In this document: piece after piece, positions 7,117 through 57,855 of the stretch
How the letters are laid out: every line of letters starts with the position of its first letter
How positions within the stretch are numbered: the first letter of the stretch is position 1
Virus record (IMG/VR): IMGVR_UViG_3300036772_000425
Location: 74,924 to 138,923 of that record
From: a virus
DNA: 64,000 nt
Direction: 5' to 3' (one strand)
Made by a program: the position numbers and the translations under genes
The notes under the pieces: generated by a model
Told to the model about the DNA's origin: nothing
Seen by the model: the letters and a program-made list of their open reading frames with translations, nothing else
Database searches by the model: none

Positions 7117-8382
7117 TCAGGTCTCCTTTGAGGTGGAAGTCACCAACATGCAATCGATGATTACATCGAGTGACTTGTCGGACAGCTTCCCAGCATCGCA
7201 GGTCTGCCGAATCCAGGTCCGGACGTTGGGGCTTCGACCCTCCCAGATGTTGAAGTAGGGGGCACACCAGGTGCCGCTGGCGAGAACCAGCTCCGCGAAC
7301 CGCTTCCGGGAACCCTGAGCCTCCTTCCGAGCAGATTCGAACACCTCGTCAGCGTGGCGACAGTACTCCCGGTACTCGTCCTGCATCTTCAGGATGCGAT
7401 CTCCCACGTCCTTCGGGATCAGGGGCACGATGTCGTCAGCCTTCTCCAGGATCACAGCCATCAGAGCGTTGCGAGGCGAGGCCGTGACGCTGTCCTTCGA
7501 CCGATGCGCCAGAACGTACGCCTCGCTCTTCAGCTTGATCCTGCGGAAGTGAGAATCGCACACTACAGCACCTTCCAACTCGCTGGGACTGATCGAGTTG
7601 ACGAACGCCGCGAGCACAACAGCGCTGGAGATGGGCCATGATCGCGGACGACGAACGTGCTCCATTCGGATCGAATCGAGCGGTACCTCCTTGCCGCTCG
7701 GCAGGTGCCGCGCTGCGAGCAGGTAGGCACGAGGTTCAGGGTATGAAACCACGATCTGATTGTGGGGTGAGACAAGCTCGAAGACATAGGTCATCTCCTT
7801 GCTGAGATGCACCACCTTGTCCGGACCGTCGACAGACCAGTCCACCGGCTTCCCCGACAGTTCCTCACGGGTCATGATGAGAGCCTTGAGGAAGAGCTGC
7901 GAGAAGGTGGAATCTCCGATCACCAGGTCGTTCGGGTGGATGGGCAGGTCAGCCTCCGACACCGACCTGGTAGCACTGCACCAGGTGCCCTTCGTAGGAT
8001 CCCAGTAGACGATGATGCAGGTGCCGTCCACCTTCTCGTACACCCGGAGTTCAGGATCAGCCCAATCGACCTTCGCGGCTGAAAAATCGCCGTGGTTGTA
8101 GAACCTGCACATGGGCCAAGCCAGGACCTCGGTCCGACCGACAGGCACCAACTTCCAACCATCACGATCGGTGTGCCACACCGCAGAATCAGGTTCGGGA
8201 CGAATGACCAACCCACGACACTGCTCTGACAGCGGATCCCCGCTGCGTGACATGATCTGATCGTAGTTGCAGGAAAACTTGCTGAAATCAGAACTGGGTC
8301 GGGCGCACACTCCGTGCGCATCCTCGAGCTCCTTGAATGAGTGGGTTCGCAGGAATTCCTGGACAAGGAGGTTGGGTGCCAT
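7117..8382 (-). CDS. RNA ligase, Rnl1-like nucleotidyltransferase
   Basis: 421 aa; motif I EKVDGT near residue 118, as in T4 Rnl1-type ligases; sits in the tRNA/RNA-repair gene context. Confidence 0.55.
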   Translation of the reverse strand: MAPNLLVQEFLRTHSFKELEDAHGVCARPSSDFSKFSCNYDQIMSRSGDPLSEQCRGLVIRPEPDSAVWHTDRDGWKLVPVGRTEVLAWPMCRFYNHGDFSAAKVDWADPELRVYEKVDGTCIIVYWDPTKGTWCSATRSVSEADLPIHPNDLVIGDSTFSQLFLKALIMTREELSGKPVDWSVDGPDKVVHLSKEMTYVFELVSPHNQIVVSYPEPRAYLLAARHLPSGKEVPLDSIRMEHVRRPRSWPISSAVVLAAFVNSISPSELEGAVVCDSHFRRIKLKSEAYVLAHRSKDSVTASPRNALMAVILEKADDIVPLIPKDVGDRILKMQDEYREYCRHADEVFESARKEAQGSRKRFAELVLASGTWCAPYFNIWEGRSPNVRTWIRQTCDAGKLSDKSLDVIIDCMLVTSTSKET

Positions 8383-8419: not shown

Positions 8420-8845
8420 TCAATCCTCAGCTTCGTTGTCCTTGAAGAGGCTCGGAAGGTCCAACCTTGCCTCTGCGTCGTCGATCGGCACCACTTCGAT
8501 GTCATTGTCAACGTACCTGCGCATCGGCAGCAACCCGCCTGAGACCCAACCGGTGTGCACCGTCACCGACAGCCCAGCCGAGTTCTTGGATTTCTGTGCA
8601 AGCCCCAACCTGATCAGATCGAGTCGTTTATGACGCTGGTTGTCCTCGTACGAGTACTCGAAACCGCGGAGCTCTGCTTCGATGAAATCACCCGGTTCGA
8701 GCAGGATCTCGTTCAGTTCAGGGATGACCGACTGCTCACCCTGTTCCATGGAGCACAGCCAGACGTACAGCGCTTCTGACGTGGGGAACAGGTACAGCTT
8801 CTTCCCATGGGAAGTGGGTCGTAGGGTGATCTTGACTTTTCGCAT
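8420..8845 (-). CDS. hypothetical protein
   Basis: 141-aa ORF in the minus-strand operon. Confidence 0.4.
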   Translation of the reverse strand: MRKVKITLRPTSHGKKLYLFPTSEALYVWLCSMEQGEQSVIPELNEILLEPGDFIEAELRGFEYSYEDNQRHKRLDLIRLGLAQKSKNSAGLSVTVHTGWVSGGLLPMRRYVDNDIEVVPIDDAEARLDLPSLFKDNEAED

Positions 8846-9195
8846 CAGTGGTACTCCGCACCGTCGTGCTTCTTGAGTTCGGTGACATGGTCATCCAGGC
8901 GCCGGATGTGTTCAGCGTTCGGAAGATCGAGCCAATCATCTTCCCGTGAGAGTTCTTGCGCTGTCAGACCCTTCGAGGCCTTGACGATGATCTCCGCGGC
9001 GTGTCGATCGCAGTACTGCACCGGCAATTTCGGATGAGAGATCGTCGCAGGCGATGAACACTCCATGCCGCACCTGGGAACAACTCCCATGATGATACGT
9101 GCATGATCGGAAGCTGCGTTGAGCAGAAGGTTGATCAACGTGGCATTTCGAAGGATGGCCTTCGCCATCAACCTGTTCTCATTGTCGTTGGTCAT
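8845..9195 (-). CDS. hypothetical protein
   Basis: 116-aa ORF; stop overlaps the next gene's start. Confidence 0.35.
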   Translation of the reverse strand: MTNDNENRLMAKAILRNATLINLLLNAASDHARIIMGVVPRCGMECSSPATISHPKLPVQYCDRHAAEIIVKASKGLTAQELSREDDWLDLPNAEHIRRLDDHVTELKKHDGAEYH

Positions 9196-9304: not shown

Positions 9305-10006
9305 TCACATCAACGATCGCAGGAGGTCCTTGTTGTCACCGCAATACGTATGTAGCTTGTCGAGCCAGACTCGAGACTTCTGCTTGAACATGATGGGCAT
9401 CTTTGTTCGTTTGTCGTTGGTTCCCTTGCACACCACGCCCTCGAATGTCATCCCAGGTAGTTGAGAACCCCTGACGCTCTCAATGAACTCTGGAGTACAT
9501 GGACCGTTGTACAGGACACGTGCATGGTCCATGTCACCGACGAGCCTGAGGTACCGGTCGGGTTCTAGGAGACCCTGGTTGAACGGTGCCACATCGAACA
9601 GCGTAACATCGAGCGTCTCGTTGAGGTCGTGCATGCCGGCGAACGATGAGGGCCCACAAAGTTCAAAGAAACACATGGCTCGCTGGTGACCCGCATCCTT
9701 CAGTGCTTTCGCAAGCGATTCTCCGTATTTGGTGGTCACCAGGTCGGGCGCGCGACCAAAGATGGGATCGGTTGCATCGACCAGTCGATGCCGAGTGCCG
9801 AACTTGTGCCAACCCTTCTTGCTGGTCCATTCTGCCCTGATGTTGCTGCCGTCCAGCTTGTCAAATGCCACGATCGGAACACGTGACTCTGTTGCGTACG
9901 AGATGCTGGGGTAAGTCTTCACAATGTTCTCCGGTTCATGGCGCTCATCTAGCTCGAAAGCGAGCTTCGGATCGCGTCGCCTGTGGTGTTCACGGATCAC
10001 GTCCAC
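9305..10006 (-). CDS. minimal ATP-dependent ligase (nucleotidyltransferase, KxDG...EGxVxK)
   Basis: 233 aa; motif I FDKLDGSN and motif V EGVVCK of covalent nucleotidyltransferase ligases. Confidence 0.55.
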   Translation of the reverse strand: MDVIREHHRRRDPKLAFELDERHEPENIVKTYPSISYATESRVPIVAFDKLDGSNIRAEWTSKKGWHKFGTRHRLVDATDPIFGRAPDLVTTKYGESLAKALKDAGHQRAMCFFELCGPSSFAGMHDLNETLDVTLFDVAPFNQGLLEPDRYLRLVGDMDHARVLYNGPCTPEFIESVRGSQLPGMTFEGVVCKGTNDKRTKMPIMFKQKSRVWLDKLHTYCGDNKDLLRSLM

Positions 10007-10563: not shown

Positions 10564-11001
10564 ATCGTACCAGCGGAGGGAGTCGAACCCTCAATCCCTT
10601 TCGGGCCCCCGATTTTGAGTCGGAGCTGTATTCCAGTTCCAAGCACGCTGGCATGCGTATTCTGCGCTCCTCAGTTCGAACCCTTGGCTCTCCGATCGTA
10701 CGTGTGTGACAATTCAACCCACAGTCGTGTTGGAGCTCGCACCCGATCATCTTCATCCGTGTCGATCGAGACGACAAGCACCAGCCCAAAGATCCTGAGA
10801 ACCCTGTTGATGGTGTTCAGCTGCATTTGAGTCCAACTCCCGCCCACGGTACGATAGTGCTTTCATCGATGACGATGGCACGTTTGCGGAAGTCCAGGAC
10901 CAGCTTTTCACCAGGTGATTCGAGTGTTCCTTCTCCGTTGAGGAACATTCGCTTCCGGTTGATCGCATCAACCTTCTCCTGGGTCAGCTTGCGTCGTTTC
11001 T

Positions 11002-14192: not shown

Positions 14193-14462
14193 TCAGCGTG
14201 CCCGATTCTTGGGTTTGACGATCACTGCCGGCCTCATCTCCTCGATGAGGCCCTTGAGGTGAGCGCGCTGGCGCGCAGCACCAACACCCACCCCCAATCG
14301 AGCGTCCAGAGCAGCGAGCTGCTGTTCCGGGTTCAACCCTCGCCAGGCCACGAGACGTTCGGCGGCCTCCGTTTGCTTGATGGAGGTCTTGTCAGGGCGC
14401 GGACCGCCCTCGCTGTAGCGACGGCCCGAGCTCGACTTACGACCCATCTTCGGCATTTCCAT
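14193..14462 (-). CDS. hypothetical basic protein
   Basis: 89-aa ORF. Confidence 0.35.
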   Translation of the reverse strand: MEMPKMGRKSSSGRRYSEGGPRPDKTSIKQTEAAERLVAWRGLNPEQQLAALDARLGVGVGAARQRAHLKGLIEEMRPAVIVKPKNRAR

Positions 14463-14506
14463 GGTGTTTATGGCCTCTGCTCCCGTGGGAGCTTCACAGG
14501 TTCAAA

Positions 14507-15115
14507 TCACCAGTGATGATCGGGACACGATCCGGAACCGCACCCGCCATCACCGGTACCGCAGTTGCTTGTAAGACAATCGCATGTCTCCTTGCACACC
14601 TCGACGCATTGCAGGTACACGTGGCAGGTGCTTACGTGATCCTTCCCATCGGTGTGTTGGCATGCCGTGTAGCATCCGTCCACACATTCCTCGTGGTCAA
14701 CATACCCATCGCACGTCAACCCTCCGCAGACAGTGCCGCCTCCTGATCCGCTCGACCCTGCGGACGATGTCGAGGTCGTTGAACCGTCAGACGCCGAGCT
14801 TGAGACGTTCGATCCACCTGAACCGGTGACAGTTGGGTTCGACCCACCGGCAGCCCCTGCACCTGATACCGTCGTTGAGCTGGTGACATCGCACCCACCA
14901 TGGCCACCCGCACCAACGGAGGACGTGCTAGATGGGCTGGAAACGCTCGATCCTTGCCCGCCGGCGCCGCCGGAACCACCGGCGCCACCGGTGCCAGTCC
15001 AGGGCGGGCAATCACAACCACCCGTTCCCGATGATTCTGGGAATTCGACCAACTGCGATCCACCGCACGCAGCGAGGACCAGCGCGCTCAGGGCGCACAG
15101 TTTCGTGAACTTCAC
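14507..15115 (-). CDS. putative lipoprotein, Cys- and Gly/Ser/Thr-rich
   Basis: N-terminus MKFTKLCALSALVLAACGGS reads as a lipoprotein signal with lipobox; multiple Cys pairs. Confidence 0.5.
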   Translation of the reverse strand: MKFTKLCALSALVLAACGGSQLVEFPESSGTGGCDCPPWTGTGGAGGSGGAGGQGSSVSSPSSTSSVGAGGHGGCDVTSSTTVSGAGAAGGSNPTVTGSGGSNVSSSASDGSTTSTSSAGSSGSGGGTVCGGLTCDGYVDHEECVDGCYTACQHTDGKDHVSTCHVYLQCVEVCKETCDCLTSNCGTGDGGCGSGSCPDHHW

Positions 15116-16208: not shown

Positions 16209-16285
16209 CACCCCCGGCAGGGTTCGAACCTGCATGTGTCCGGTTACGGTTCCCACTGCTTAGAAGGCAGAGCCGATACGGAGGT
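16209..16285 (-). ncRNA. tRNA-like element (Arg-type acceptor and T-arm; anticodon arm not foldable)
   Basis: acceptor acccccg/cggaggt and T-arm gcagg-gttcgaa-cctgc nearly identical to tRNA-Arg(ACG) at 17688, but no canonical D or anticodon arm. Confidence 0.35.
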
Positions 16286-16586: not shown

Positions 16587-16720
16587 AAGCGCACTTTCAC
16601 CTACGGTCCCGGTGGGATTTGCACCCACACCCTCGAAATCATACCTCGATGTGCTCCGTTACACCACGGAACAACTCTTGGCCGGCTGTCCGGCAGTTAC
16701 TCATGTGAGCTGAAGGTACA

Positions 16721-17770: not shown

Positions 17771-18169
17771 TCACCAACCGAAACGGTCCTGGCGCTCGCG
17801 ATCATTCTGCATGATCAGGGACAGGTTGCCGGCTTCTTCTGCTTCTCGCTGGCGTGAGTTCTCCTCACGCGTGCGACGTTCGTGTTCGTCAGACCGCGCG
17901 AGCTCCTTTGCGTAATTCTCTTGCTGGCGAGCCCGAGCGAGCCCAGCGGCGTAACCACGATTGTACGCAACCTCTTCGATCTCTGCCCTGGTCTCTGCCT
18001 CCGTCTTTGTCCGGACAGGTTCGACGGTTTCATCGATGATTTTTTGCCATCGGTCCACGGAGGGTTCGTCCACGTGGCGTTCGTTCCTCATCTGGATGTT
18101 TTCAAGAGCTGTTTTGATCTTTTGTTTCTTTGGAGCGGTCATCAGCATCACCAGTTCCCATCGTACCAT
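17771..18169 (-). CDS. hypothetical coiled-coil/charged protein (start uncertain)
   Basis: 132-aa ORF, R/E-rich. Confidence 0.3.
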   Translation of the reverse strand: MVRWELVMLMTAPKKQKIKTALENIQMRNERHVDEPSVDRWQKIIDETVEPVRTKTEAETRAEIEEVAYNRGYAAGLARARQQENYAKELARSDEHERRTREENSRQREAEEAGNLSLIMQNDRERQDRFGW

Positions 18170-18817
18170 CGGGACAGGCGAAACTTCATGCCCGTCCGAT
18201 GGTCAGTTACCAGGTCGTCCTGTGTCCTGTACGTTCGAACCTTGTCACCGCGTTGACCTGAACCCACCTGGGTCTTCCGTTCTGATTCACGAAGCCTGTT
18301 CATCCTTTCGGATTCAACGTCATGGATCCTGGCTGCAAGGACCTTCAGGGCGGTGGCCCTGTTCTGGTGCTGCGACCTTTCGTTGTCTATCCTGACCTGG
18401 ATTCCTGTGGGGCGATGAACAGCGATCACGCACGACTCTGTCTTGTTCCTGTTCTGCCCGCCCGACCCGGTGCCGCGTGCTGTCGTCACGACAACATCCT
18501 TCTGATCCAGGTGAAAACCAGCAGACATCTCAGGATCCATCACCGCGACGGTGACCGTCGATGTTTGGACCCTACCACGCTTCTCGTTGGGAGGGACCCG
18601 CTGCCATCGGTGACCGCCTGCCTCGTTAGCGTACAGTGACCTGCATCCGGGCCCCTCTACCGTGAAAACGACCTGACCGGGCCTTTGATCGATCAGCTGG
18701 ACGTCAAAGACCCCTCTGGGCCGCAACGTTGCAGTACACGCGAAGCTGATCCTTGACAAGGAGCTTCGCATCGTCGCCGCCCTCGGCGGCCCGGATCTCG
18801 ATGATGATCGTTTCCAT
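18148..18817 (-). CDS. class-I release factor RF2-like (domains 2-4, GGQ motif) with +1 programmed frameshift at CUU UGA C
   Basis: Frame 0 from ATG 18817 (METIIIEIRAAEGGDDAKLL...AAQRGL) stops at UGA 18706-18704 within cagAGGGGuCUUUGAC; the +1 frame continues DVQLIDQRPGQV...SGGQNRNKTESCVIAVHRPTGIQV; the joined product aligns contiguously with RF2 domain 2. Confidence 0.65.
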
Positions 18818-20586: not shown

Positions 20587-20939
20587 GTGGAAATGAGGCG
20601 GAGATCTAAGCGGAGTTCTGTCGAGGACGATCATTCATCTTGGGTGCACGTCACCGTGCACCTCTAGCAACAACCCGCATGCTCGGGCGAACAACCCTCG
20701 AGCGCATGCTGTTTGTCTTGCTCCGGGAGGGGCCCCATACCGTCCGCATTGCTGCGTCCGTGGTGGGCTCTTACCCCACCGTTTCAACCTTGCCTGATCC
20801 CTTGCGGGCCATCGGCGGTCTGTTTTCTGTTGAGCCTTCCGACACCTTACGGTGCCCAGTGATTACCTGGTACCCTGTTCTAGGGAGCTCCGACTTTCCT
20901 CTACGCTCTGCAGCGCAGCGATCGTCTTTCCCTGCCTCG

Positions 20940-21030: not shown

Positions 21031-21531
21031 TCAATCGTGATCACGTCGTGATTGAGAAATCTTAGCTCTCGATTCTTCTGTGTGATGTCGACCTTTGAAT
21101 CCATGAGTGGGTGTCAGAGCATGACAGTTTGGACACAAGTACCGAAGGTTGGTAGGATCAGGATTTGAACTGTTACCATCGATGTGATCGATTTCAAGCT
21201 CAAGAGGTTTTCCATTCCACTCACCGGTGTTTCCGCACTTCACACATCGATATTCACGATCAAGTTCTTGAAGAACTCGACGCAATATCGTCGTACGAAC
21301 TCCGCGTTTAATCGTATGGATGTTTTGGGCGGTGATCTTTTCGGGTCCCCCACGGTGACGCTCACCAGAATTTGCTGAACGCCCCAAGAAGTGAGTTACA
21401 TCGAGCTGAAGTGCTTCAATTTCACGCTTGACAGCATGCCAAGCAGAACCAGAAGTCATTCCCATACGTAGAACAACTTCACGATAACTCTTTGAGGAAG
21501 CCACAACAACGATCAATTTCTCTCGATCCAT
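21031..21531 (-). CDS. HNH homing endonuclease
   Basis: Trimmed to ATG 21531 (MDREKL...); CVKCG...ELEIDHIDGNSSNPDPTNLRYLCPNCH. Confidence 0.65.
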   Translation of the reverse strand: MDREKLIVVVASSKSYREVVLRMGMTSGSAWHAVKREIEALQLDVTHFLGRSANSGERHRGGPEKITAQNIHTIKRGVRTTILRRVLQELDREYRCVKCGNTGEWNGKPLELEIDHIDGNSSNPDPTNLRYLCPNCHALTPTHGFKGRHHTEESRAKISQSRRDHD

Positions 21532-21573
21532 GAGGCAATGGTACTGTTCTTTTAGTACTTGTATTTGCCTAAG

Positions 21574-21659
21574 TGCCATCGAGGGGATTCGAACCCCTAC
21601 ACCCATTACGGGTACAACGTTCTCAACGTTGCGCGCCTGCCTAATTTCGCCACGATGGC
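21574..21659 (-). tRNA. tRNA-Leu(GAG), class II
   Basis: 86 nt; acceptor gccatcg/cgatggc; T-arm agggg-attcgaa-cccct; loop uugagaa. Confidence 0.7.
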
Positions 21660-22570: not shown

Positions 22571-22670
22571 TCAACTACTGGGATTCGAACCCACATGCCC
22601 TTTCAGGCACCCGGGTTTGAGCCAGGTGCGTCTGCCTGTTCCGCCATCGGATCTCTCCTTGACGAGTTGA
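22571..22670 (-). ncRNA. elongated tRNA-like element (~100 nt) with Leu(CAA)-type anticodon arm
   Basis: acceptor tcaacta/gagttga 6 of 7; canonical T-arm; variable hairpin tgcc-ctttca-ggca; anticodon arm cccgg-gtttgag-ccagg; about 17 nt extra before the 5' acceptor with no canonical D-arm. Confidence 0.4.
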
Positions 22671-22685
22671 CGTTTACTTGCGCGG

Positions 22686-22757
22686 AGTAGAGGGTGGGAG
22701 TCGAACCCACTATCACCTGTTTTGCAGACAGGGTCCTTGCCGTCAGGAATCCACTAC
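22686..22757 (-). tRNA. tRNA-Cys(GCA)
   Basis: T-arm gtggg-agtcgaa-cccac; anticodon stem ccugu/acagg; loop cugcaaa; acceptor has one U-U mismatch. Confidence 0.7.
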
Positions 22758-22924
22758 ATCTTCGGGATTGTCACGGTCCTTCATGGGATCATCCAACCCC
22801 CGATCGTCGCCATCGTCCCGGCTGTTCGGCCCATCTGGCAACCGAAGTTGGTCAACCAGGGCCTCACGGATAATTCTGCGAAGCTCTTGAACAGAGATAC
22901 CGATGCTCACGTCTCTAATTATGG

Positions 22925-22997
22925 TCCCTCACGGTCGGATTTGAACCGACGACGCCCGGGTTTCAGCCGGGTGCTCTACCAACTGAGCTACGGAGGG
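22925..22997 (-). tRNA. tRNA-Phe(GAA) with a bulged nucleotide in the acceptor stem
   Basis: T-arm gtcgg-atttgaa-ccgac; anticodon stem cccgg/ccggg; loop cugaaac; D-arm gctc/gagc; 3' acceptor strand carries one extra nucleotide. Confidence 0.6.
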
Positions 22998-23000
22998 ATG

Positions 23001-23072
23001 GGTGGTCGACGGGATTCGAACCCGCGTAAGCACGGTCACAACGTGCCCCCTGAACCGCTCGGGTACGACCAC
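23001..23072 (-). tRNA. tRNA-His(GUG)
   Basis: acceptor gtggtcg/cgaccac; anticodon stem gcacg/cgtgc; loop uugugac. Confidence 0.7.
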
Positions 23073-23074
23073 AG

Positions 23075-23148
23075 TCGGGAAGGAGGGACTCGAACCCCCG
23101 ATCTCGTGTTTCCAGAACACGCGCGATACCAAACTTCGCTACTTCCCG
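23075..23148 (-). tRNA. tRNA-Pro(UGG) (tentative; loop register ambiguous)
   Basis: acceptor cgggaag/cttcccg; T-arm gaggg-actcgaa-ccccc; anticodon hairpin cgtgt-ttccaga-acacg. Confidence 0.55.
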
Positions 23149-23585
23149 TTTCGTTTCTTGTTTCCGTAGGTCGGCGTTTGAGTGTGACAGTTGGGACACA
23201 AGAATCTCAAATTCTTAATTTCATTGTTGAAATGATCTCCGTCGATGTGATCGAGTTGAAGCGTCAGAGGTTTTCCATTCCAACGTGCTCCAATTCCACA
23301 TAGTTGACAAGAGTAATCACAGCCAGATGCTAGTAAGGCTTTTCTTCTAGATCTACCCGAGGAATCCTTCTGAAAGATCTGTGTGAGTTTTTCAGGCGTC
23401 AAATGAGTTCTGCGATGGCCACCCAAAGCTGAACCTGATTTGAAATCCTTGTCGCATGCATCACATCGATGTTCGATTGATCGGGGTGGTCGTTTAGGAA
23501 GGTCTCCTTTACGAACATGCGAAGAACGATGACCTGCGTATTTTTCCTTCACATCAGTTTTGTAATCACACAGATCACAATTCAT
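23139..23585 (-). CDS. HNH homing endonuclease with two N-terminal C2H2-type zinc fingers
   Basis: 148 aa; CDLCDYKT..HRSSH and CDACDKDF..HRRTH; CQLCG...LQLDHIDGDHFNNEIKNLRFLCPNCH; its stop overlaps the adjacent tRNA-Pro by about 10 nt. Confidence 0.65.
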   Translation of the reverse strand: MNCDLCDYKTDVKEKYAGHRSSHVRKGDLPKRPPRSIEHRCDACDKDFKSGSALGGHRRTHLTPEKLTQIFQKDSSGRSRRKALLASGCDYSCQLCGIGARWNGKPLTLQLDHIDGDHFNNEIKNLRFLCPNCHTQTPTYGNKKRNGK

Positions 23586-23589
23586 AGAG

Positions 23590-23660
23590 AGCTGGCGAAG
23601 GGACTCGAACCCTCACAGGCCTGCTTACGATGCAGGTACCCACCGTTGGGTGACGCCAGC
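23590..23660 (-). tRNA. tRNA-Thr(CGU)
   Basis: acceptor gctggcg/cgccagc; anticodon stem ccugc/gcagg; loop aucguaa. Confidence 0.7.
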
Positions 23661-23735
23661 GTCCTGGTCGCAGTCTCTCCTGCGGTGTCACGCCGTTTTG
23701 CTGACGTTTGCTCCGGTCTTTTTCACCCGGTGTGG

Positions 23736-23809
23736 TCGGAAAGACAGGATTCGAACCTGCGACTTCCACGTCCCGAACGTGGCGCTCTACCAAGCTGAGC
23801 TACTTTCCG
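23736..23809 (-). tRNA. tRNA-Pro(CGG)
   Basis: acceptor cggaaag/ctttccg; anticodon stem ccacg/cgugg; loop uucggga (G37). Confidence 0.7.
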
Positions 23810-23896
23810 ATAGGAACGTCCACGACCCTGGGAGTGTATGCCCAGCGTTACCGTCACCGTCACCTCCTCTTGGTGACCGATCTTGAACGTTAAGTG

Positions 23897-23968
23897 TCAG
23901 GAAGGTGGGACTCGAACCCACGACCTCAGCGATCCCGTCGCCGCCGTCTGCCACTGACTTACTTCCTG
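23897..23968 (-). tRNA. tRNA-Pro(GGG) (tentative)
   Basis: acceptor caggaag/cttcctg; T-arm gtggg-actcgaa-cccac; loop acgggau. Confidence 0.6.
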
Positions 23969-23969
23969 G

Positions 23970-24044
23970 TCGAGTGAGCAGGATTCGAACCTGCGATCCC
24001 CTGGTTCCGGACCAGGTGCGATAACCAAACTTCGCCATCACTCG
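23970..24044 (-). tRNA. tRNA (anticodon CGG read; 5-bp/7-nt versus 6-bp/5-nt loop ambiguous)
   Basis: acceptor cgagtga/tcactcg; T-arm gcagg-attcgaa-cctgc; hairpin cctgg-ttccgga-ccagg. Confidence 0.5.
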
Positions 24045-24051
24045 ATGGTGC

Positions 24052-24167
24052 GTGCAGAAGAGGACTCGAACCCCTTCGTCCCTTGCGTGCTGGGATGCCA
24101 TCCCAGTGCCCGAATCGAACGGGCTGACAACTAGACGGGACTGCTCAACCGGTGAGCACATCTGCAC
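24052..24167 (-). ncRNA. elongated tRNA-like element (~116 nt) with about 45 extra nt between the T-arm and D-arm
   Basis: perfect 7-bp acceptor gtgcaga/tctgcac; T-arm near X; D-arm gctc-aaccggt-gagc near Y; interior holds a GGC-anticodon-like hairpin ctggg-atgccat-cccag plus a second T-arm-like hairpin gcccg-aatcgaa-cgggc. Confidence 0.4.
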
Positions 24168-28926: not shown

Positions 28927-29793
28927 TCATGCAACCGGTGTCACGGCCATGACCCTTTTCTTGAAGAGCCGTGCAGCCAACGATCCGATGGCGCGTCGAG
29001 CGTCCTTGGAATCGATGAACTCACCGGCACCCTCACGCTGCACGTCCTCCAACATGGCCGCGATCACCTTGGGCGTGTCCTTGATGTCCACGTTACCGAG
29101 CTTGTCCAGGACGTGCTCCAACCGGGTCGGCGTGACCCACTCCGCGGCGATGGCCTCAGCGTCCTCAAGGACCTTGAGCTTCGCCGGGTCGCCCACCTCC
29201 CTCACCGTCCTGGTCTCGCGCTCCTCAGCACGCTTGTGCTTGAAGATGAAGCGTTCTCCGTTGGCATCGTAGATCTCTTGCAGGGCTCGGAGAACGACGC
29301 CCTCCCGGGGTTGATCGCCTTCAACTCCGTTGCGGCGTGCCTGCTCGGACGGCGCGTCCCGTTCAGCGTCCAGCGCGGCGATCTCCACCGGAACACGTCG
29401 GTAGTGCACGAACTCGAGACCCAACCTCTGGGCGACCTGGTCAGCATCGGGCACGCTGAGCCAGCGATCGCCCACCTTGACCTCGAAGGCGATGAACTTC
29501 AACTGCTTCCCGTACCGCCAGGACTGTCCCTGTTGCTTTCCACCGTAGGCCTCACCGAAGACGATGATCTCCGGGTGACCGATGGTCTCGAAGGCGACCT
29601 TCAAGGCATCGAGGTCAAAGATCTTGATGAAGCTCGCAAGCGACTCGCCGCCGGCGAAGAGATGCACCTCCCCGTCCTTCCAGGACACGTGCGCGGAGGT
29701 GCCGTGAATCTTCTCCGATGCGTAGCACTCCCTGAGCAGAAAGAAACACTGCGCTTCAGGACGATAAAGGTTCGTCGTGTGCCTGTACCCCAT
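28927..29793 (-). CDS. RNA ligase, Rnl2-like
   Basis: 288 aa; motif I EKIHGTSA matches the Rnl2 K-I-H-G-T signature. Confidence 0.65.
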   Translation of the reverse strand: MGYRHTTNLYRPEAQCFFLLRECYASEKIHGTSAHVSWKDGEVHLFAGGESLASFIKIFDLDALKVAFETIGHPEIIVFGEAYGGKQQGQSWRYGKQLKFIAFEVKVGDRWLSVPDADQVAQRLGLEFVHYRRVPVEIAALDAERDAPSEQARRNGVEGDQPREGVVLRALQEIYDANGERFIFKHKRAEERETRTVREVGDPAKLKVLEDAEAIAAEWVTPTRLEHVLDKLGNVDIKDTPKVIAAMLEDVQREGAGEFIDSKDARRAIGSLAARLFKKRVMAVTPVA

Positions 29794-41322: not shown

Positions 41323-41328
41323 ATGCGA

Positions 41329-41415
41329 TCACCGTAAACGGAATTGAACCGTTGCGCGCAGTAGCAGCCGCGAGCCAGACTTCCGTGAGTCCACGTGCTT
41401 TCCTCGAATGCGGTG
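41329..41415 (-). ncRNA. class-II-length tRNA-like element with a 6-nt anticodon loop
   Basis: 87 nt; acceptor 6 of 7; T-arm aacgg-aattgaa-ccgtt; variable arm cgcg/cgcg; hairpin ggact-cacgga-agtct; no canonical D-arm. Confidence 0.4.
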
Positions 41416-41420
41416 ATCGG

Positions 41421-42270: not shown

Positions 42271-42347
42271 TGGAGCTGGAGGGAGTCGAACCCTCGGTCG
42301 TGTGAGGTCCATTGTCGGCTTTCTCAAACGCCCTGCCTTTCAGCCCC
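42271..42347 (-). ncRNA. tRNA-like element with Ala-type G3:U70 acceptor but no foldable anticodon arm
   Basis: acceptor ggggctg/cagctcc; T-arm gaggg-agtcgaa-ccctc; exhaustive 5-7-5 hairpin scan of the interior found none. Confidence 0.35.
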
Positions 42348-43417: not shown

Positions 43418-43621
43418 ATTGTCCGGTCTCTCCCGGATGTCCTGAAAACCTCACCTGAGCTGATCACCTCTTCTTGTGATGGTAGTGCTTGCGCCAGCAG
43501 GGTCGACACATGTAGAATCGACCGAGCAGGTCAGAAGCAATCCTGCAGAACCTGCACATCTTACGCCTCCTTTCACGATGAAAGGGCGTTACGTATCTTG
43601 GATCATTCTCCCACCTTCGGT

Positions 43622-43690
43622 TGCGGATCCCGGAGTCGCGCCGGATTCTCAAGCTTATGAGGCTTGCGAGTTGCTCTTTCTCTTATCCGC
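43622..43690 (-). ncRNA. tRNA-Met(CAU)-like element with non-canonical T-loop (possible pseudo-tRNA)
   Basis: acceptor gcggatc/tatccgc 6 of 7; anticodon hairpin caagc-ttatgag-gcttg identical in loop to the adjacent tRNA-Met; T-loop agtcgcg lacks the TTCGA pattern. Confidence 0.35.
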
Positions 43691-43692
43691 GG

Positions 43693-43850: not shown

Positions 43851-43857
43851 ATGGTGG

Positions 43858-43979
43858 AGCGTGGTGAAGGATTCGAACCTTCATTTCCGGCTGCGATTGC
43901 CGGCGTTATTTCCCATTCAGGCTTCCGGAGCGAGGTGCGCACCTCGATTTCCCTGGTCGTGAACGTCTACTAACCACGC
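43858..43979 (-). ncRNA. elongated tRNA-like element (~122 nt)
   Basis: perfect acceptor gcgtggt/accacgc 115 nt apart; canonical T-arm gaagg-attcgaa-ccttc; interior hairpins ccggc-tgcgatt-gccgg and cgaggtg-cg-cacctcg. Confidence 0.4.
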
Positions 43980-44315: not shown

Positions 44316-44439
44316 GTTCCATGACGGTACCAGGTTGTGCGCCCGAGTACAATCAGAATCGAAGCATTTTTCACCTTCACGGTTCTGTACCGTCTGGCTC
44401 ACCCTTTGCCCTCACGGGCATGTAGGCAGAAATTGAATT

Positions 44440-44500
44440 CCTGCTGGAGCCCATGCTGGGATTCGAACCCAGTCCTGAATGAATGGTTACTGTTCTGCCA
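44440..44500 (-). ncRNA. tRNA fragment-like (T-arm ctggg-attcgaa-cccag without a matching 5' acceptor)
   Basis: canonical T-arm, but no complementary acceptor strand found within 100 nt. Confidence 0.2.
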
Positions 44501-44505
44501 CGAAG

Positions 44506-44581
44506 CGGGGGAGGATGGGCTTGAACCACCGTCTTCGGACCTATTGCGGTCCGACGCTGAAGTCTACTGAGCTACTCCCCC
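44506..44581 (-). ncRNA. tRNA-like element with 8-nt (or 6-nt) anticodon loop
   Basis: acceptor gggggag/ctccccc; T-arm gatgg-gcttgaa-ccacc; anticodon hairpin cggac-ctattgcg-gtccg. Confidence 0.4.
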
Positions 44582-45525: not shown

Positions 45526-45531
45526 AATGTG

Positions 45532-45602
45532 CTCCCAGAGCTGGCCTTGCACCAGCACCTCCGTGCGTTCTAGCACGGCGCTCTGCCTTGAGCTACCCGG
45601 GA
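45532..45602 (-). ncRNA. tRNA-like element with non-canonical T-loop and 6/8-nt anticodon loop
   Basis: acceptor 7 bp including two G-U; T-arm-like gctgg-ccttgca-ccagc; hairpin ccgtgc-gttcta-gcacgg; D-arm gctc-tgcctt-gagc. Confidence 0.35.
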
Positions 45603-53312: not shown

Positions 53313-54258
53313 GCTTGCCCAATCCCAGCACCAGCAGTCCCTCTGCTGCGTATGACTCTGCGTTCAGGTCCGACGACAGCTGCCCACCCGCCATCGCAGC
53401 CTCCAGCTGTTCCTTGAGCTCGCCTAACCAGGGTCCGGGCGCTGCGCCCGAACGGGCCAGGATGATGCCCATGGTGCCCTTCGGCAACCGCGGTAGGTTG
53501 TCAGCGGCGTACAGTTCCCGGACACGAGCCTCCAGCTCATCGCCCCGGCGCATCGCCGCGGCACGCTTCCGTGGGTTCTTGGTGGTCAGGTCGGCACGTG
53601 ACAGAGCCAGCAACCGCTCGAAACCCCGCATCCCGTCCAGGTCGGTGAGCAACCGGCGGACAGCGCTGTCGGTCCATCCGCTGCTGTAGCCCGCCGGGCG
53701 CAGGTGGTTGAGGACGAGCGACCGGACGGTGCGCAGCAAGGCCACATCCTTTCCGAACAGGCCCAACCTGCGCTCGATGGAACCCACCGCCCGCGCACCG
53801 ACCACATCGTGGTTGTGGAAGCTGACACGGCCCTGCCGGTCGACGGCCCGGGTCTGCGCCTTCCCCACGTCGTGCATCAAGGCGGACCAGCGCATCTCCA
53901 CCGTGGCGGGCACCCCGAGGACCACCTTCTTGGTGTGATCCCAGACGTCCTTGTGGAGCGCAGCCTCCGGGTCGTCGCCCAGGTCACGCAGGGCCTGCAG
54001 CTCCGGGATCAGCGCGGCCAACGCGCCCGACCTGAGGAGCAGCTCCAGGCCTGCGTCCGGGAAGGGTCCGGTCAGCAGGGCGTCAAGGATCGCGCGCACC
54101 TGCACGGGGTGACGCCGCCAGGCATTCTGGTAGTCGCCCTGCCCGAAGATGCGGGGAACCTGCACGTCATCTGGGACGCCCTGCTGGGCACCCAGGGCGC
54201 ACAGATCCAGGACCTCGAGGGCGTCCATCAGTCCCTCCTGTCGCCCCGGGGGTCGCAC
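53302..54258 (-). CDS. HD-domain phosphohydrolase (resembles the C-terminal HD domain of bacterial CCA-adding enzymes)
   Basis: 318 aa; LHKDVWDHT...ALMHDVGK...HNHDV. Confidence 0.55.
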   Translation of the reverse strand: MRPPGRQEGLMDALEVLDLCALGAQQGVPDDVQVPRIFGQGDYQNAWRRHPVQVRAILDALLTGPFPDAGLELLLRSGALAALIPELQALRDLGDDPEAALHKDVWDHTKKVVLGVPATVEMRWSALMHDVGKAQTRAVDRQGRVSFHNHDVVGARAVGSIERRLGLFGKDVALLRTVRSLVLNHLRPAGYSSGWTDSAVRRLLTDLDGMRGFERLLALSRADLTTKNPRKRAAAMRRGDELEARVRELYAADNLPRLPKGTMGIILARSGAAPGPWLGELKEQLEAAMAGGQLSSDLNAESYAAEGLLVLGLGKHAG

Positions 54259-54464
54259 TGGCCCTCGGTGCCGAAGTAGTCCTCGTCCAGCAACCGGTCC
54301 AGCATCCGGTCGAACTCTGCGCAGGCCTGCCGGGCACCCTCGTCCTTCTGCACCCTGTCGGACGTACCGTGGTCGAGCACGTGGGCCACGAACAGCGTGG
54401 CGCGCTCGGCCAGGTTCTTGGGCGTGGTGCTCGCGATCTTCTTCTTCATGCTGTTCTCTCCCGT

Positions 54465-54935
54465 TCAGAGCATCGCGATGACGGTGGGCAGGGAATCCGC
54501 CGCGCCGGAGTAGCTCCGGAGTTCCACGGAGGCGCCCGCCCTGATCAGGGCCTCGGCTGCCTGGCGCGCGAACTCGGCAGAGCCGGCCACCATGATGGGG
54601 GTGCCCAGGGGCGACTCCACCGCCTCCTTCGCCTCCTTCAGGCCCAGGCCCGTCAGCTCCCGGATCACCTTGATGACGTTGATCTTGGCCGTGCCGACGG
54701 CCTGCAGCGACACCGCCTGGCGCCCAGCCGGGACCATCAGCAGGGTCGAGGCCCGGCAGAAGCGGTCGAACAGGTCGGACAGGTGTGCCACGGGCACCAC
54801 CTCCGACATCCGGATGCCCCGGGGTTCCTCGTCCGGCGGGAGCTCTGACCCATCCTCGGCGACCTCCCTGACCACGAAGTCGACCCGGATCCTCGAGAGG
54901 GGTTGGCGGCTGCGCATGCTCTCCATGTTAACCAC
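54465..54935 (-). CDS. protein with ribosomal bL12 (L7/L12) C-terminal domain
   Basis: 156 aa; [56 protein letters not shown] parallels the bL12 CTD ([27 protein letters not shown]...). Confidence 0.55.
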   Translation of the reverse strand: [156 protein letters not shown]

Positions 54936-54959
54936 CCTACCACCGGTGCATCCCAGGTT

Positions 54960-55517
54960 TCACAGCTCCACGATCCATTTGCCGCCGCTCCCCGTGGGCA
55001 CAGCCCCCGCTGCACGGAACAGGGCCCGACCACGTTCGCTCCATGGGAAGCACAGGAAGCGCCGGGCGCCGAGCGCCCGGGACACCTCGATCGCCCGGTC
55101 GACCAGGTGCCGGCCCAGGCCGGCGCCGCGGTGGGGGGCAGAGACGTACACAGCGACCTCCATGTCCCTCGGATCCGATCCCGGAACGACCAGGGCCCAG
55201 GCGATGGGTTCCGCCGGCCTGATGACCCACCCGCACGGTGCTGGGCAACCGTCCAGGGCACGTTCCAGGTGCATCCGCATGTCTGACTCCAGCTCACAGG
55301 TCCCGACCGAGCCCGACGGGAGCTCCCCATCGTCGGGCGCGCGGTTGGTCAGGGGCAGCAGGGCATGCAGCTCATCGGGCACCAACGTACCCAACCCGAC
55401 GACGCGGAGGGCGGGACGGGGCGCCCCGATGGCCTCACGTGAACCCAGGCTGACTGTGATGGGGGGAACAACGGCCGCGCGCGGGCGATTGACGGTGGGC
55501 CTCACGGTGGAGATCAT
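54960..55517 (-). CDS. GNAT family N-acetyltransferase
   Basis: Trimmed to ATG 55517 (MISTVRP...); VAVYVSAPHRGAGLGRHLVDRAIEVSRALGARRF matches GNAT motif A. Confidence 0.5.
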   Translation of the reverse strand: MISTVRPTVNRPRAAVVPPITVSLGSREAIGAPRPALRVVGLGTLVPDELHALLPLTNRAPDDGELPSGSVGTCELESDMRMHLERALDGCPAPCGWVIRPAEPIAWALVVPGSDPRDMEVAVYVSAPHRGAGLGRHLVDRAIEVSRALGARRFLCFPWSERGRALFRAAGAVPTGSGGKWIVEL

Positions 55518-56495
55518 GCTTTCCTTTTCATCCCTTTCAGAGCAGGTGACCGGCGGTGCCGACGGTCGGTGGAATACAGCCGGACGGGCCCAGCTGGTCG
55601 TGCACGGCACGCAGGGCGGTGACCAGGAGCTCGCATGCCGCGGCGAGCTCGGGTTCACCTGAGCCCCGGAGCATGTCGGGCAGCCCAGCGAGCGGCAGAT
55701 CCTGCAGGCGGACCCGCAGGCGAAGCCCGGCCAGGTCGGCAAGCGATCGTTGCAGGGCCCGGAGCTCGCGGGGGTCGAGCTCCATCAGCCGCTCCACCGG
55801 GTCCACATGACCGCGGTGCCCTCGGGACCGTGGGAGACGACCAGGCCCAACCGGTGGTGCGGGGGCTGGTGCTTCGCCGAACGGTGCTGGACCAGGGCGC
55901 CCGGTTGCAGGCACGGGAAGCAGGTGACCAGGCAGGAGGCGAAGAACCCTCCTGCCTGGGCATCGTACCGCTTGAGCTCGGTGCCGGCGGTCAACGGTCG
56001 ACCACCACGCGTTCCAGCAGGGCCTGCAGCTCAACGTGGGCCCCGGGGGCCGCCCGGGTCGGGTACACGCTGACGATCCGCTCGCCGGGCAGCAGCGCGG
56101 CGGCGACCGCCATCACGTCGGGCTCACCGTTCGGGTGGGCCGGGACGGCGACCGTCCGGTACGGGCACGGCCGGAAGGTGGCGGACGACCGGCGCAGGCG
56201 ATCCGGGATGCCGGGGACAGGGGGAACGCTCATGTTCAGAGGATCCTCGGGTCAGCACGGTGGACATTGAGCTCACGCAGGCGTGGGCCGATACGCGCGA
56301 GCAAGGCGATCGCCCGGTGTTGACTGTCGGCGCGCCCGTGGTACCCGGCCACGAGAGCCAGGCGGACGACGCGGCACGCGGCCAGGAGGTCAGGGTCGGG
56401 CAGGTCGGCGAGGGAGAGCCTGCTCGCCAGGTCCCAGAACCCGGCGGCGGGCAGCAGGAACAGGGCATCGCCCAGCTGGGCTGCCGCGCTCCGGT

Positions 56496-56831
56496 TCATC
56501 GACCACCGTCGGCTGCATCAGGGAGCGCCCAGCGAACGCACGGGCAGCGCTGTTCGTATTCCTGGCGCCAGCGAGAGCACCACTGCTGCGGGTAGGCCCC
56601 GGCGTTGCCGTAGTTCCCAGCGGTGAGATTGTTGGTGCGGGTCTCGGTGCACGTCAACCCCGATGGGCGTTCGGTGCAGGGACCCCGCTCTGCGCAGGTC
56701 GGAGCAGGCGCCGCGGGAACCGAGGGGGTGGCTGCGGTCGACGGCCCGGTGTCGGCCGGCATGTCGCCGCAGCCGACCATGCACGCCAGGACGATGATGG
56801 TGAGGTGAGCGAGGGTGGTACGACTGTCCAT
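56496..56831 (-). CDS. putative Cys-rich lipoprotein
   Basis: Trimmed to ATG 56831 (MDSRTTLAHLTIIVLACMVGCGD...); very GC-rich region, frame uncertain. Confidence 0.35.
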   Translation of the reverse strand: MDSRTTLAHLTIIVLACMVGCGDMPADTGPSTAATPSVPAAPAPTCAERGPCTERPSGLTCTETRTNNLTAGNYGNAGAYPQQWCSRWRQEYEQRCPCVRWALPDAADGGR

Positions 56832-57156
56832 ACTCAGCAGGGTACCACGGATGGGCCCAGGGTTGCACTGCCCAGGATCCGGAAGGTGCACCGGCGTGCC
56901 TGGTGGCCCAACCTCAGCTGTGTCTTCATGCGGGTACGTATGGTCGCCCGGCGGAAAACAGTGCACCGGCAGCAGGGATCCCGCGCGGGTCCGGAATTTC
57001 ACGCGTGATTTGTGTGCATACCCCAAGCGGGAGGCCGCCCGAGACCTTCGACAAAGGTTGCCAGCGGGCCGGGGCGGCCCCCCACCCCCTAGAAGGGGCC
57101 GTTTAGGGGGCCGTCGATGGGGCCCTGTGAGGGGCCCCGGGGCCGGGGCGGCCCGT

Positions 57157-57453
57157 TCAGTACAGCGGGTACTCCACGATCGCCCAGTACGGGCGGGTGG
57201 ACAGTTCCGTCCCCGACCACTCGCAGGGTTCGCCCCCGTCCTCCTCCATGTGCTCGCCCTCCGGCTCGCCGTCGAAGTGGGCGAGCAGCTCGGCGTCCTT
57301 CCGGACCTTCATCGCCTCCACCGTCGCCCGGTCGAGCGACACCATCGCCACCTCCAGGGTGACCCCGCTGCCCATCGACACGTCGCCCTCCAGCTGGAGG
57401 ACGTAGGCGTACTGGGACCCGTTCTTCTTGGTCGACTTCTTGGTGGTTTCCAT
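57157..57453 (-). CDS. small protein of the motif-preceded gene array (starts METTKK)
   Basis: ATG 57453 abuts conserved upstream motif copy 1. Confidence 0.5.
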   Translation of the reverse strand: METTKKSTKKNGSQYAYVLQLEGDVSMGSGVTLEVAMVSLDRATVEAMKVRKDAELLAHFDGEPEGEHMEEDGGEPCEWSGTELSTRPYWAIVEYPLY

Positions 57454-57495
57454 GGTCCTAGTATATCCTCCGCGCATCCGAGGTTTCACAGTCGA
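57454..57495 (-). promoter_or_regulatory. conserved promoter-like motif, copy 1
   Basis: coding strand CTGTGAAACC-N18-GGATATACTAGGACC then ATG. Confidence 0.5.
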
Positions 57496-57499
57496 ACTC

Positions 57500-57796
57500 T
57501 CAGGCGATGGCGGTCGCGGTGACCCGCAGGCGGGTCGTGCGGCCGACGATCCGCTCGTCGACGGAGATGAAGCAGTGGCAGTCGGGCAGGGCGAAGCTGA
57601 GGTCACCGTTGACGTAGCCCTTCGACGCCAGGAACCGGCCCAGCGCGCTCTCCGGGTCGAAGTACGCGACCAGCTTGGTGTACGGGTCGTCCTTCGGGCC
57701 CGTGGTGGTGGAGGACACGGTGGGGGAGGCCTCCAGCAGGGCCGCGATGCGGCAGCCGAGCATGGGGGAGATTGCGGTGTGCTTGTTGGTTTCCAT
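57500..57796 (-). CDS. small protein of the array (starts METNKH)
   Basis: internal Met 93 of ORF 57500..58072 coincides with the motif; ATG GAA ACC. Confidence 0.5.
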   Translation of the reverse strand: METNKHTAISPMLGCRIAALLEASPTVSSTTTGPKDDPYTKLVAYFDPESALGRFLASKGYVNGDLSFALPDCHCFISVDERIVGRTTRLRVTATAIA

Positions 57797-57838: not shown

Positions 57839-57855
57839 CCCTGTCGAGGCCGGCG

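Follow-up and report, generated by a model that had tools for sequence, protein, structure and literature searches.

A stretch of 64,000 nucleotides (nt) of viral DNA (IMG/VR record IMGVR_UViG_3300036772_000425, positions 74,924 to 138,923; referred to as the window) contains three elongated transfer RNA (tRNA)-like genes, e1, e2 and e3, each of which resembles a tRNA interrupted by a single extra segment. Judged from the sequence, the best reading is that they are tRNAs carrying inserts or intron-containing tRNAs, which is partly supported, and we give a probability of roughly 0.55 to the more specific proposal that e1-e3 are insert-bearing tRNA genes of the megaphage-intron kind that are probably processed. 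e2 and e3 are real, and e1 is weaker. All three lie on the minus strand, as do the other window genes and elements whose coordinates are given here: e1 at 22571-22670 (100 nt), e2 at 24052-24167 (116 nt) and e3 at 43855-43979 (a 121-nt Arg-like tRNA at 43859-43979 plus an encoded U-CCA). Their positions agree with an earlier note made from the sequence alone.

Recognition of e1, e2 and e3 as tRNA-like genes

The full-length elements were neither called by ARAGORN at default settings nor matched by the Rfam tRNA model, even at E<=10. When one contiguous segment was deleted, ARAGORN called e1 and e3 by default and e2 only at a relaxed threshold (-ps90). The extra segments, which the earlier note had described as hairpin-forming, are indeed contiguous and form hairpins, measuring 17 nt in e1, 47 nt in e2 and ~52 nt in e3. 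Folding z-scores of the elements were modest (-2.0 to -2.5), and ARAGORN in intron mode at low thresholds gave inconsistent calls, except for CTA in e2. Because the extra segment is found at three different sites, after position 7 in e1, at 37/38 in e2 and in the D-loop in e3, the three elements are not one family.

The chance of finding an acceptor partner was estimated by shuffling the upstream 60-230 nt 5000 times and counting partners for the 3' acceptor strand. A 7/7 partner was present in 1.0% of the shuffles for e2 and 1.2% for e3, and since so few shuffles (~1%) contained one, the acceptors of e2 and e3 are more than chance. A 6/7 partner for e1 was present in 16% of the shuffles. Perfect 7-nt acceptor pairing and canonical T arms, both of which had been claimed for all three elements, were found in e2 and e3, whereas e1 pairs at only six of seven acceptor positions and has a G.G mismatch in its T stem.

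Comparison loci were collected from viral and metagenome collections with the DNA ligase as anchor; these loci contained no e2 or e3 ortholog (best ligase identity, 70%). Blastn of the elements against all loci produced T-arm-level matches only, save a match of e3 to locus L105, and DNA patterns for the interrupted and spliced forms of e2 and for the 3' end of e3 gave one chance match and then none in viral contigs. The comparison of orthologous loci that had been proposed was achieved through neighboring proteins, which led to locus L103 for e2 and L105 for e3, and in both orthologs the helices are kept via compensatory changes.

Structure and conservation of e2

e2 consists of an acceptor stem, a D-like hairpin, a 5-base-pair (bp) stem, the 47-nt insert and a T arm. 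The acceptor (GTGCAGA/TCTGCAC) is Watson-Crick paired at 7/7 positions, the T arm (AGGGG-TTCGAGT-CCTCT) abuts it, and the D-like hairpin carries GG in its loop. The 5-bp stem at the anticodon position (GUCCC/GGGAC) leads into G32-U33-C34-U35-A36-G37 (24131-24136), which reads as the 5' half of an anticodon loop with a CUA anticodon, and the A at 24083, preceding the 3' strand of the stem, would be position 38. The variable region is only 2 nt long (GA).

The insert (24084-24130) lies between positions 37 and 38 and is composed of a linker (UUGUCA), hairpin A, a spacer A, hairpin B and a second linker (CACGCA). Hairpin A (GCCCG-TTCGATT-CGGGC, 24108-24124) is T-loop-like; it is the second T-arm-like hairpin recognized in the earlier note and is conserved in L103. 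Hairpin B (CTGGGAT-GGC-ATCCCAG, 24090-24106) had been taken for an Ala(GGC)-type anticodon hairpin, an assignment that we abandon: it has a 7-bp stem and a 3-nt loop, and its counterpart in L103 is TGGGA-AGGT-TCCCG.

The 233-amino-acid protein encoded next to e2 has one distant homolog (P0002, 46% identity) on a Logan contig, which led to L103. There, an e2 ortholog (L103:10843-10953) with the same architecture is located among the same tRNA-Pro genes. A search of IMG/VR with the same protein found no orthologous loci, and exact look-up returned only a 1.4-kb copy of the same genome. A possible look-alike, L048:9527-9637, was rejected as a homolog since it was too divergent in the MAFFT alignment.

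Covariation between e2 and L103 was counted over four helices (22 pairs) that MAFFT aligned in register. The results showed that 97.7% of the cells pair and that 6 of the 22 pairs changed on both sides, versus 0-1 double changes in slid controls in which the partner was moved by 1-3 columns. A hand-registered count that included hairpin B gave 17 unchanged pairs, 3 single changes, 6 double changes and 1 broken pair. The hairpins of the insert are kept with one double and two single compensatory changes, the TTCGATT loop of hairpin A is invariant, and the insert is of similar length in e2 (47 nt) and L103 (45 nt). The linkers are almost unrelated, the exceptions being the six bases that follow the stem (GUCUAG versus GUCUAA) and the A immediately 5' of the strand that closes the stem. 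Because GUCUAR and the A are conserved while the adjoining linker bases diverge, e2 may be read as an amber-suppressor-type anticodon loop, G32-U33-C34-U35-A36-R37...A38, split at the canonical 37/38 site. The suppressor features U33-CUA-R37 and A38 are kept in both genes, and a contiguous 7-nt loop forms only with the insert removed.

An uninterrupted ortholog of e2 was not found, and the spliced-form pattern had 0 matches in viral contigs. A relative, L007:346-421, contains an unrelated, uninterrupted tRNA(CUA) whose loop, GUCUAAG, has the same unusual G32. The closing stem and hairpin B of e2 and L103 share invariant TCCC/GGGA/TCCC/GGGA cores (RNA positions 28-31, 64-67, 73-76 and 86-89), which could, from their sequence, pair in an alternative order. 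The exon-exon junction predicted upon removal of the insert is ...GUCCCGUCUAG/AGGGAC..., with the k-mer GTCCCGTCTAG/AGGGACGAAGG (slashes mark the junction).

Structure and conservation of e3

The acceptor of e3 (GCGTGGT/ACCACGC) is Watson-Crick paired at 7/7 positions. It is followed by UA at positions 8-9, the start of the D arm (GUAGA), the insert and the rest of the D arm (GGAAAUAAC), and further by an arm (CCGGC-AATCGCA-GCCGG, 43887-43903), a variable region (AAAU) and a T arm (GAAGG-TTCGAAT-CCTTC, 43866-43882), after which TCCA, a discriminator U plus CCA, is encoded. The insert in the D-loop (43914-43965) is a 52-nt helix-closed domain, CGTTCA...TGAATG, that holds a perfect 16-nt palindrome, CGAGGTGCGCACCTCG. 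Bacterial 23S rRNA contains intervening sequences that are likewise helix-closed, vary between close relatives and are excised by RNase III without religation. Their resemblance to the e3 insert is by analogy only, as the host RNA and the scale differ and the e3 insert has no long perfect RNase III-type duplex.

The neighbor of e3 encodes a 248-amino-acid kinase-like protein, an 87%-identical homolog of which occurs on a Logan contig, and ~530 nt upstream of the latter is the e3 ortholog, L105:282-424. It keeps the acceptor, the arm, the T stem and TCCA with two double and one single compensatory changes: a U-A pair of the acceptor became U.G, and the T stem and the arm each have one double change. 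The insert of L105 occupies the same D-loop site, from AGA(A) of the 5' D-loop to AGUGGUA, the usual GG-containing 3' part, and is unrelated in sequence (~67 nt, closed by GUCC/GGAC). After in-silico removal of the inserts, the default ARAGORN calls were tRNA-Arg(tcg) for e3 and tRNA-Arg(cct) for L105. The junction predicted for e3 is GGTTAGTAGA/GGAAATAACGCC (boundary +/- 2 nt). A duplication of the neighboring tRNA-Thr was considered as the source of e3 and rejected, since only a weak local alignment was obtained.

Since the helices of e2 and e3 acquired double compensatory changes while their linkers diverged, both are maintained by selection as folded RNAs.

Structure of e1

The interior of e1 is an ordinary type-II tRNA-Leu(CAA) body, with a D arm (UGGCGGAACAGGCAGACGC), an anticodon loop (CUCAAAC), a long variable arm and a T arm, and of the 242 distinct tRNAs compared, which come from the window and its relatives, the Leu(caa) of L039 matches it best. 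The 5' acceptor strand is displaced. By reading the sequence, the canonical position, GATCCGA, pairs with the 3' strand at only 2/7 positions, and the complementary TCAACTC sits 17 nt upstream, forming a 6/7 acceptor (TCAACTC/TAGTTGA) with a C7.T66 mismatch; the G.G mismatch of the T stem is G49.G65. The 17-nt extra segment, GTCAAGGAGAGATCCGA (22647-22663), is inserted between acceptor position 7 and U8. Removal of this segment yielded a default ARAGORN call of tRNA-Leu(caa), and the canonical boundaries yielded none; the predicted junction is TCAACTC/TGGCGGAAC. Leu(taa)-like genes take the corresponding place, flanked by tRNA-Cys and tRNA-Thr(ggt), in L039, L043 and L048; they have mispaired acceptor tops and C33 or A33 and lack the 17-nt extension. 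Two readings of e1 fit its sequence: a Leu gene into which a short segment was inserted after position 7, and a paralogue in decay.

Origin and class of the elements

Each insert occurs once in the ~1.3 Mb of the window plus loci, and with no copies elsewhere in the data searched, the idea that the inserts are mobile repeats was rejected. The scaffolds of e2 and e3 had no close match among the 242 tRNAs, and we therefore rejected the view that they are known tRNAs with a recent insertion; fused or duplicated tRNA scaffolds, one of the earlier suggestions, also lost their footing on these two results. A transfer-messenger RNA (tmRNA) reading was rejected because ARAGORN (-m) called no tmRNA and the acceptors of e1-e3 are without G3:U70, and a tRNA-Sec reading of the elements was rejected as well.

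Comparison with known tRNA introns

The tRNA genes of the Lak megaphages contain 'enigmatic introns' of 79-114 nt right after position 37 (Devoto et al. 2019, Nat Microbiol; PMC6784885). They occur in Tyr, Phe, Thr and Gly tRNAs (PMC6784885, Table S6), and each contains a T-arm-like hairpin near its 3' end, for example aattggTTCGAATccaatt, flanked by an acceptor-like stem and without an Rfam match (PMC6784885). The Tyr, Phe, Thr and Gly introns read ...GGTTCGAATCC... near the 3' end (PMC6784885, Table S6). Because of their length, the Lak genes escape calls made with bacterial settings, and the Lak hosts are AT-rich Prevotella, with code 15 in use (PMC6784885).

Both Lak and the window represent huge phages with clustered tRNA genes, and the e2 insert shares three features with the Lak introns: it follows immediately on position 37, encloses a T-arm-like hairpin and matches no Rfam family. 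The Lak intron holds a nested tRNA in normal order with an open acceptor-like stem, whereas e2 holds a T-loop hairpin plus a closed 7-bp hairpin. The e2 insert is also shorter (47 nt), it interrupts a CUA tRNA rather than a Tyr, Phe, Thr or Gly tRNA, and the window has a GC content of ~58% and reads well in the standard code, unlike Lak with code 15 and its AT-rich host. The insert sites of e3 (D-loop) and e1 (7/8) are not among the Lak introns in PMC6784885 and its Table S6, and the inserts of e1 and e3 have no T-loop and are not at position 37. Since insert position and T-loop module agree, e2 is probably a member or variant of the Lak 'enigmatic intron' kind, with e1 and e3 as probable variants at non-canonical positions.

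The inserts were also compared with the bulge-helix-bulge (BHB) introns of archaea and eukaryotes, which are cut by the EndA/Sen endonuclease and sealed by RtcB or Trl1. Those introns are likewise short inserts at 37/38, in archaea also at non-canonical sites including the D-loop, and their exon ends are sealed by an RNA ligase; an Rnl1-like gene is present in the window. Archaeal non-canonical introns are known at D-loop and acceptor-stem positions, and yeast Trl1 has a T4 Rnl1-like ligase domain. The window differs in having a bacterial-type system, no BHB motif and, in the window ORFs scanned, no endonuclease domain. A strict BHB (3-4-3) search gave counts at shuffle level, with none at the exon-insert junctions or common to the orthologs, and the 3' end of the e2 insert shows no complementarity to positions 32-35. 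Group I introns, which occur in bacterial and phage genes, including the anticodon loops of bacterial tRNAs, likewise interrupt a tRNA anticodon loop in a bacterial-type genome, but they measure ~200 nt or more and have a conserved catalytic core. The inserts of e1-e3 (17-52 nt) are far too short for this class, and the elements had no match to group I (RF00028), ribozyme or other Rfam models at E<=10. Both intron classes had been proposed in the earlier note as models to search, and neither found a match at the junctions or in Rfam. The earlier suggestion of intron-containing or insert-bearing tRNAs survives in part, with cloverleaves after one deletion (for e2 at the relaxed threshold only) and compensatory changes in the orthologs on its side, and without the BHB and group I mechanisms.

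A possible route of tRNA processing

In the insert-bearing reading, the ends of e1-e3 transcripts would be processed like tRNA ends, given their intact acceptor/T-arm stack and the RNase P RNA gene close by. The RNase P RNA gene (20591-20938; bacterial type A, complete, Rfam 255 bits versus a gathering score of 100) is located within the phage tRNA array and flanked by tRNA-Arg(tcg) and tRNA-Leu(cag). The insert would then be excised by endonucleases other than the archaeal splicing enzyme, and the halves would be joined by phage ATP-dependent RNA ligases. Cleavage by RNase P and RNase Z produces 3'-OH and 5'-phosphate ends, a direct substrate for ATP-dependent ligases. The window encodes a T4 Rnl1-like RNA ligase (7117-8382), an Rnl2-like RNA ligase (28927-29793) and a third RNA-ligase-family protein (9305-10006). 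The break in e2 would be in the anticodon loop, the natural substrate of T4 Rnl1, and the products would be tRNA(CUA) from e2, an Arg-like tRNA from e3 and tRNA-Leu(CAA) from e1. The T-loop hairpin of the e2 insert, stacked on the 7-bp stem, resembles a closed acceptor/T-arm minihelix and may be a handle by which tRNA-processing enzymes find the insert.

Within this reading, that the inserts are actually spliced out is a step to which we give somewhat less than an even chance. A broader proposal, which we regard as unlikely, is that huge phages of bacteria splice tRNAs by a separate pathway that involves neither BHB motifs nor self-splicing. Such a pathway would act on short structured inserts at 37/38, in the D-loop and at 7/8, some with a tRNA minihelix mimic, which would be cut by RNase P, RNase Z or some phage enzyme, and the exons would be rejoined by Rnl1/Rnl2-type ligases.

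Alternative readings

Several observations weigh against e1-e3 being processed, insert-bearing tRNAs. Without its insert, e2 makes a poor tRNA, as its variable region measures 2-3 nt and position 32 is G; ARAGORN called it as a CTA tRNA at the relaxed threshold only and did not call its L103 counterpart. Structural selection also acts on the e2 insert, as would be expected of a functional cargo no less than of an intron. The arm loops of e3 (AATCGCA) and L105 (ACCTC) differ in length and sequence and have no U33, and because of these features the decoding competence of e3 and L105 appears doubtful. For each of e2 and e3, a single ortholog was found. The long-range acceptor of e1 could be a chance pairing, as the shuffles indicate (16%), and its T stem is mismatched. 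A scan of 72 open reading frames (ORFs) of the window, which represents 64 kb of ~340 kb, revealed no domain of a splicing endonuclease (tRNA_int_endo), RtcB or polynucleotide kinase.

The alternative that best survives, with a real though minor chance of being correct, is that e1-e3 are stable tRNA-like RNAs that keep the insert and never serve as adaptors: the acceptor and T arm would be the handle for processing by RNase P and RNase Z, CCA addition and stability, and the insert would be the working part, which might offer proteins a binding platform, act in regulation, or divert host anticodon nucleases and other defences that target tRNAs as a decoy. Conservation of the hairpins of the e2 insert through compensatory changes, including the invariant TTCGATT loop, fits this view, and so does e3, in which the handle and TCCA stay while the cargo is swapped between relatives with 87% identity of the neighboring protein and the arm loop is neither conserved nor provided with U33. 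The same arrays also hold conserved, non-decoding tRNA-like RNAs (x41 and x42, see below), and no splicing machinery was found among the window ORFs scanned. Non-decoding tRNA-like small RNAs encoded among phage tRNA genes are exemplified by stable RNAs C and D (species 1 and 2) of the T4 tRNA cluster and by the bacterial and phage YrlA (Y RNA-like) tRNA mimics, in which the tRNA-like module gives processing and stability. In YrlA, unlike e1-e3, the 5' and 3' termini make up the Ro-binding stem and the tRNA-like module is in the interior, whereas the termini of e1-e3 form the tRNA acceptor stem; we rejected a YrlA reading, as Rfam RF02553 gave matches of <=25.5 bits, versus a gathering score of 69, and these fell on ordinary tRNAs. 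What speaks against a kept insert is the conservation of GUCUAR and A, but not of the linker bases, between e2 and L103, as predicted for an anticodon loop split at 37/38, and the recovery of a recognizable tRNA from each element upon deletion of exactly one segment. Both e3 orthologs also read Arg anticodons, which is weak evidence, since by a hand estimate two random triplets would share an amino acid in ~6% of cases.

Functionless, decaying tRNA pseudogenes or rearrangement scars in an array churned by homing endonucleases are quite unlikely as a general explanation and apply mostly to e1. The two helix defects of e1 (C7.T66 and G49.G65) with its chance-level 6/7 acceptor, the same-slot Leu-like genes of L039, L043 and L048 with mispaired acceptor tops and non-U33 loops, the HNH genes in the arrays, and the absence of e2 and e3 from the corresponding sites of several relatives (e.g., L009 and L031) all agree with decay. 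For e2 and e3 this reading is disfavoured: preservation of helices by double compensatory changes while the linkers diverged is unlike neutral decay, their 7/7 acceptors are unlikely by chance, and the inserts are neither repeated nor mobile in the data searched.

Classical introns, with a BHB cut by a splicing endonuclease or a self-splicing group I core, are highly improbable: the canonical 37/38 position of the e2 insert and the D-loop and acceptor-stem sites known for archaeal introns favor them, against the shuffle-level BHB matches, the short inserts without a group I or ribozyme match, the bacterial type of the tRNAs and the RNase P RNA, and the lack of a tRNA_int_endo domain in the window ORFs scanned.

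Genomic context of the elements

ARAGORN called 56 tRNA genes in the window, all on the minus strand and in arrays at 10.5-25.5 kb and 41-46 kb; the total is ~60 once the few extra Rfam calls are counted. Use of the DNA ligase as anchor identified related viral contigs of 309-369 kb with syntenic tRNA arrays, and a protein identical to the neighbor of e2 was found on a 340-kb contig. Because of these syntenic relatives of up to 369 kb and the identical neighbor protein, the window is, on sequence comparison, part of a huge phage. Other window genes encode an ATP-dependent DNA ligase, four HNH endonucleases, endonuclease VII, a sigma factor, a Laminin_G_3 fibre-like protein and an RF1-like release factor. 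GC content climbs from ~0.58 to 0.65-0.70 at 54000-64000, where the ORFs are without Pfam matches.

The stop codons of 56 window ORFs are TGA (42), TAG (11) and TAA (3), and the standard code reads well. Neither in-frame TAG recoding nor stop-codon recoding in general was evident in the window ORFs. The RF1-like release factor (18148-18771), which is encoded inside the tRNA array, has 207 amino acids and lacks domain 1. It contains GGQ, its PxT codon-recognition tripeptide is PPN, and its best PDB matches are RF1 (E = 5e-40) versus RF2 (E = 6e-22).

Two of the HNH endonuclease genes, which encode C2H2 zinc fingers, are located among the tRNA genes (23139-23585 and 21031-21606). The presence of an HNH homolog in a different spacer in a relative (L009:248-648) suggests that the tRNA arrays were remodelled by homing endonucleases.

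Other over-long tRNA genes and unusual tRNA-like RNAs

Similar over-long tRNA genes were found in relatives. Removal of 24 nt of the anticodon loop from L039:14428-14521 gave a tRNA with a UCA anticodon; this gene (14428-14524) has its insert at 37/38 and encodes CCA. Removal of 49 nt from L111 (~481-615), a type-II-like gene, gave a tRNA with a GTG anticodon, and the removed insert has an inner T-loop hairpin. L048 has over-long tRNA-like genes with long internal hairpins at 9527-9637 and 9751-9843, the first of which contains an inner T-loop hairpin followed by a stacked hairpin, as in e2. Relatives also have tRNA-Asn genes of 81-87 nt with enlarged D-loops and tRNA-Lys(ttt) genes of 81-82 nt.

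Between tRNA-Trp and tRNA-Gln lies x41 (41328-41417), a conserved tRNA-like RNA of 80-100 nt with counterparts at L006:2313-2413, L007:1317-1412, L059:3288-3382, L090:3353-3449 and L088:2134-2215. The RNA comprises a 9-bp terminal stem plus a T arm and lacks both a D arm and an anticodon arm; 11/19 pairs covary, no Rfam family matches it, and its invariant motifs are UUYGAGGAAAG, CACAGAA and GCGGCUGCUAC. A second conserved RNA, the 76-nt x42 (42272-42347), lies among tRNA-Ala genes and recurs at L009:1729-1804, L088:567-642, L080:1336-1412, L106 (~8777-8850) and L107 (~10823-10898). Its acceptor is tRNA-Ala/tmRNA-like (GGGGCUG/CAGCUCC, with G3:U70 and A73), its T arm is GAGGGUUCGACUCCCUC, and its interior (..GAGAAAGCCGACAAUGGA..) is without an anticodon arm; ARAGORN makes no call. 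A 'closed minihelix', an orphan T-arm hairpin with a directly adjoining closed 5-7-bp stem and no 5' tRNA half, is located at 44400-44472, 3' of a caat tRNA. It also occurs at L059:1818-1848 and L090:2234-2266, in both cases 3' of tRNA-Lys(ctt), and its stem covaries between these two relatives.

Further tRNA genes escaped ARAGORN at default settings. Two (16604-16673 and 43621-43691) reached the Rfam gathering score (41.2 and 38.2 bits), and a 76-nt gene (16210-16285) has a 7/7 acceptor with one G.U pair and a T arm. Anticodon loops of 8 nt were seen at 44505-44581 (caat) and 45531-45602 (agaa), and 6-nt loops in L009:101-247. On the tRNA strand, the hexamer AGTAAC was counted 12 times, versus 3 times on the other, mostly in tRNA-gene spacers (e.g., 44491, 44233, 41996, 22480, 22060, 16701, 16377, 12212 and 12055), and (A)AGTAA(A/C) recurs in the spacers of many relatives as well as just upstream of e1 and, in L105, downstream of the e3 ortholog. 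This hexamer may be a promoter or processing signal.

Implications for phage tRNA biology

Splicing of tRNAs by proteins is considered a property of archaea and eukaryotes, and bacterial tRNA introns are self-splicing group I introns. To our knowledge, short structured inserts in phage tRNA genes that are not self-splicing have been noted only in passing, in the Lak megaphages, and never explained. New here are the covariation evidence for selection on the insert and the host tRNA, the case of a CUA tRNA that would read a stop codon, and the non-canonical insert sites. If the inserts are kept, these genes would represent natural 'tRNA-scaffolded' small RNAs. If they are removed, RNA would be processed here by a new route, which might also act as a switch for stop-codon read-through; should a splicing pathway of the phage's own exist, production of the e2 amber-suppressor tRNA would be conditional on phage-encoded processing. 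Because tRNA finders run in bacterial mode miss genes of the e1-e3 type, suppressor tRNAs in phage genomes are probably under-counted.

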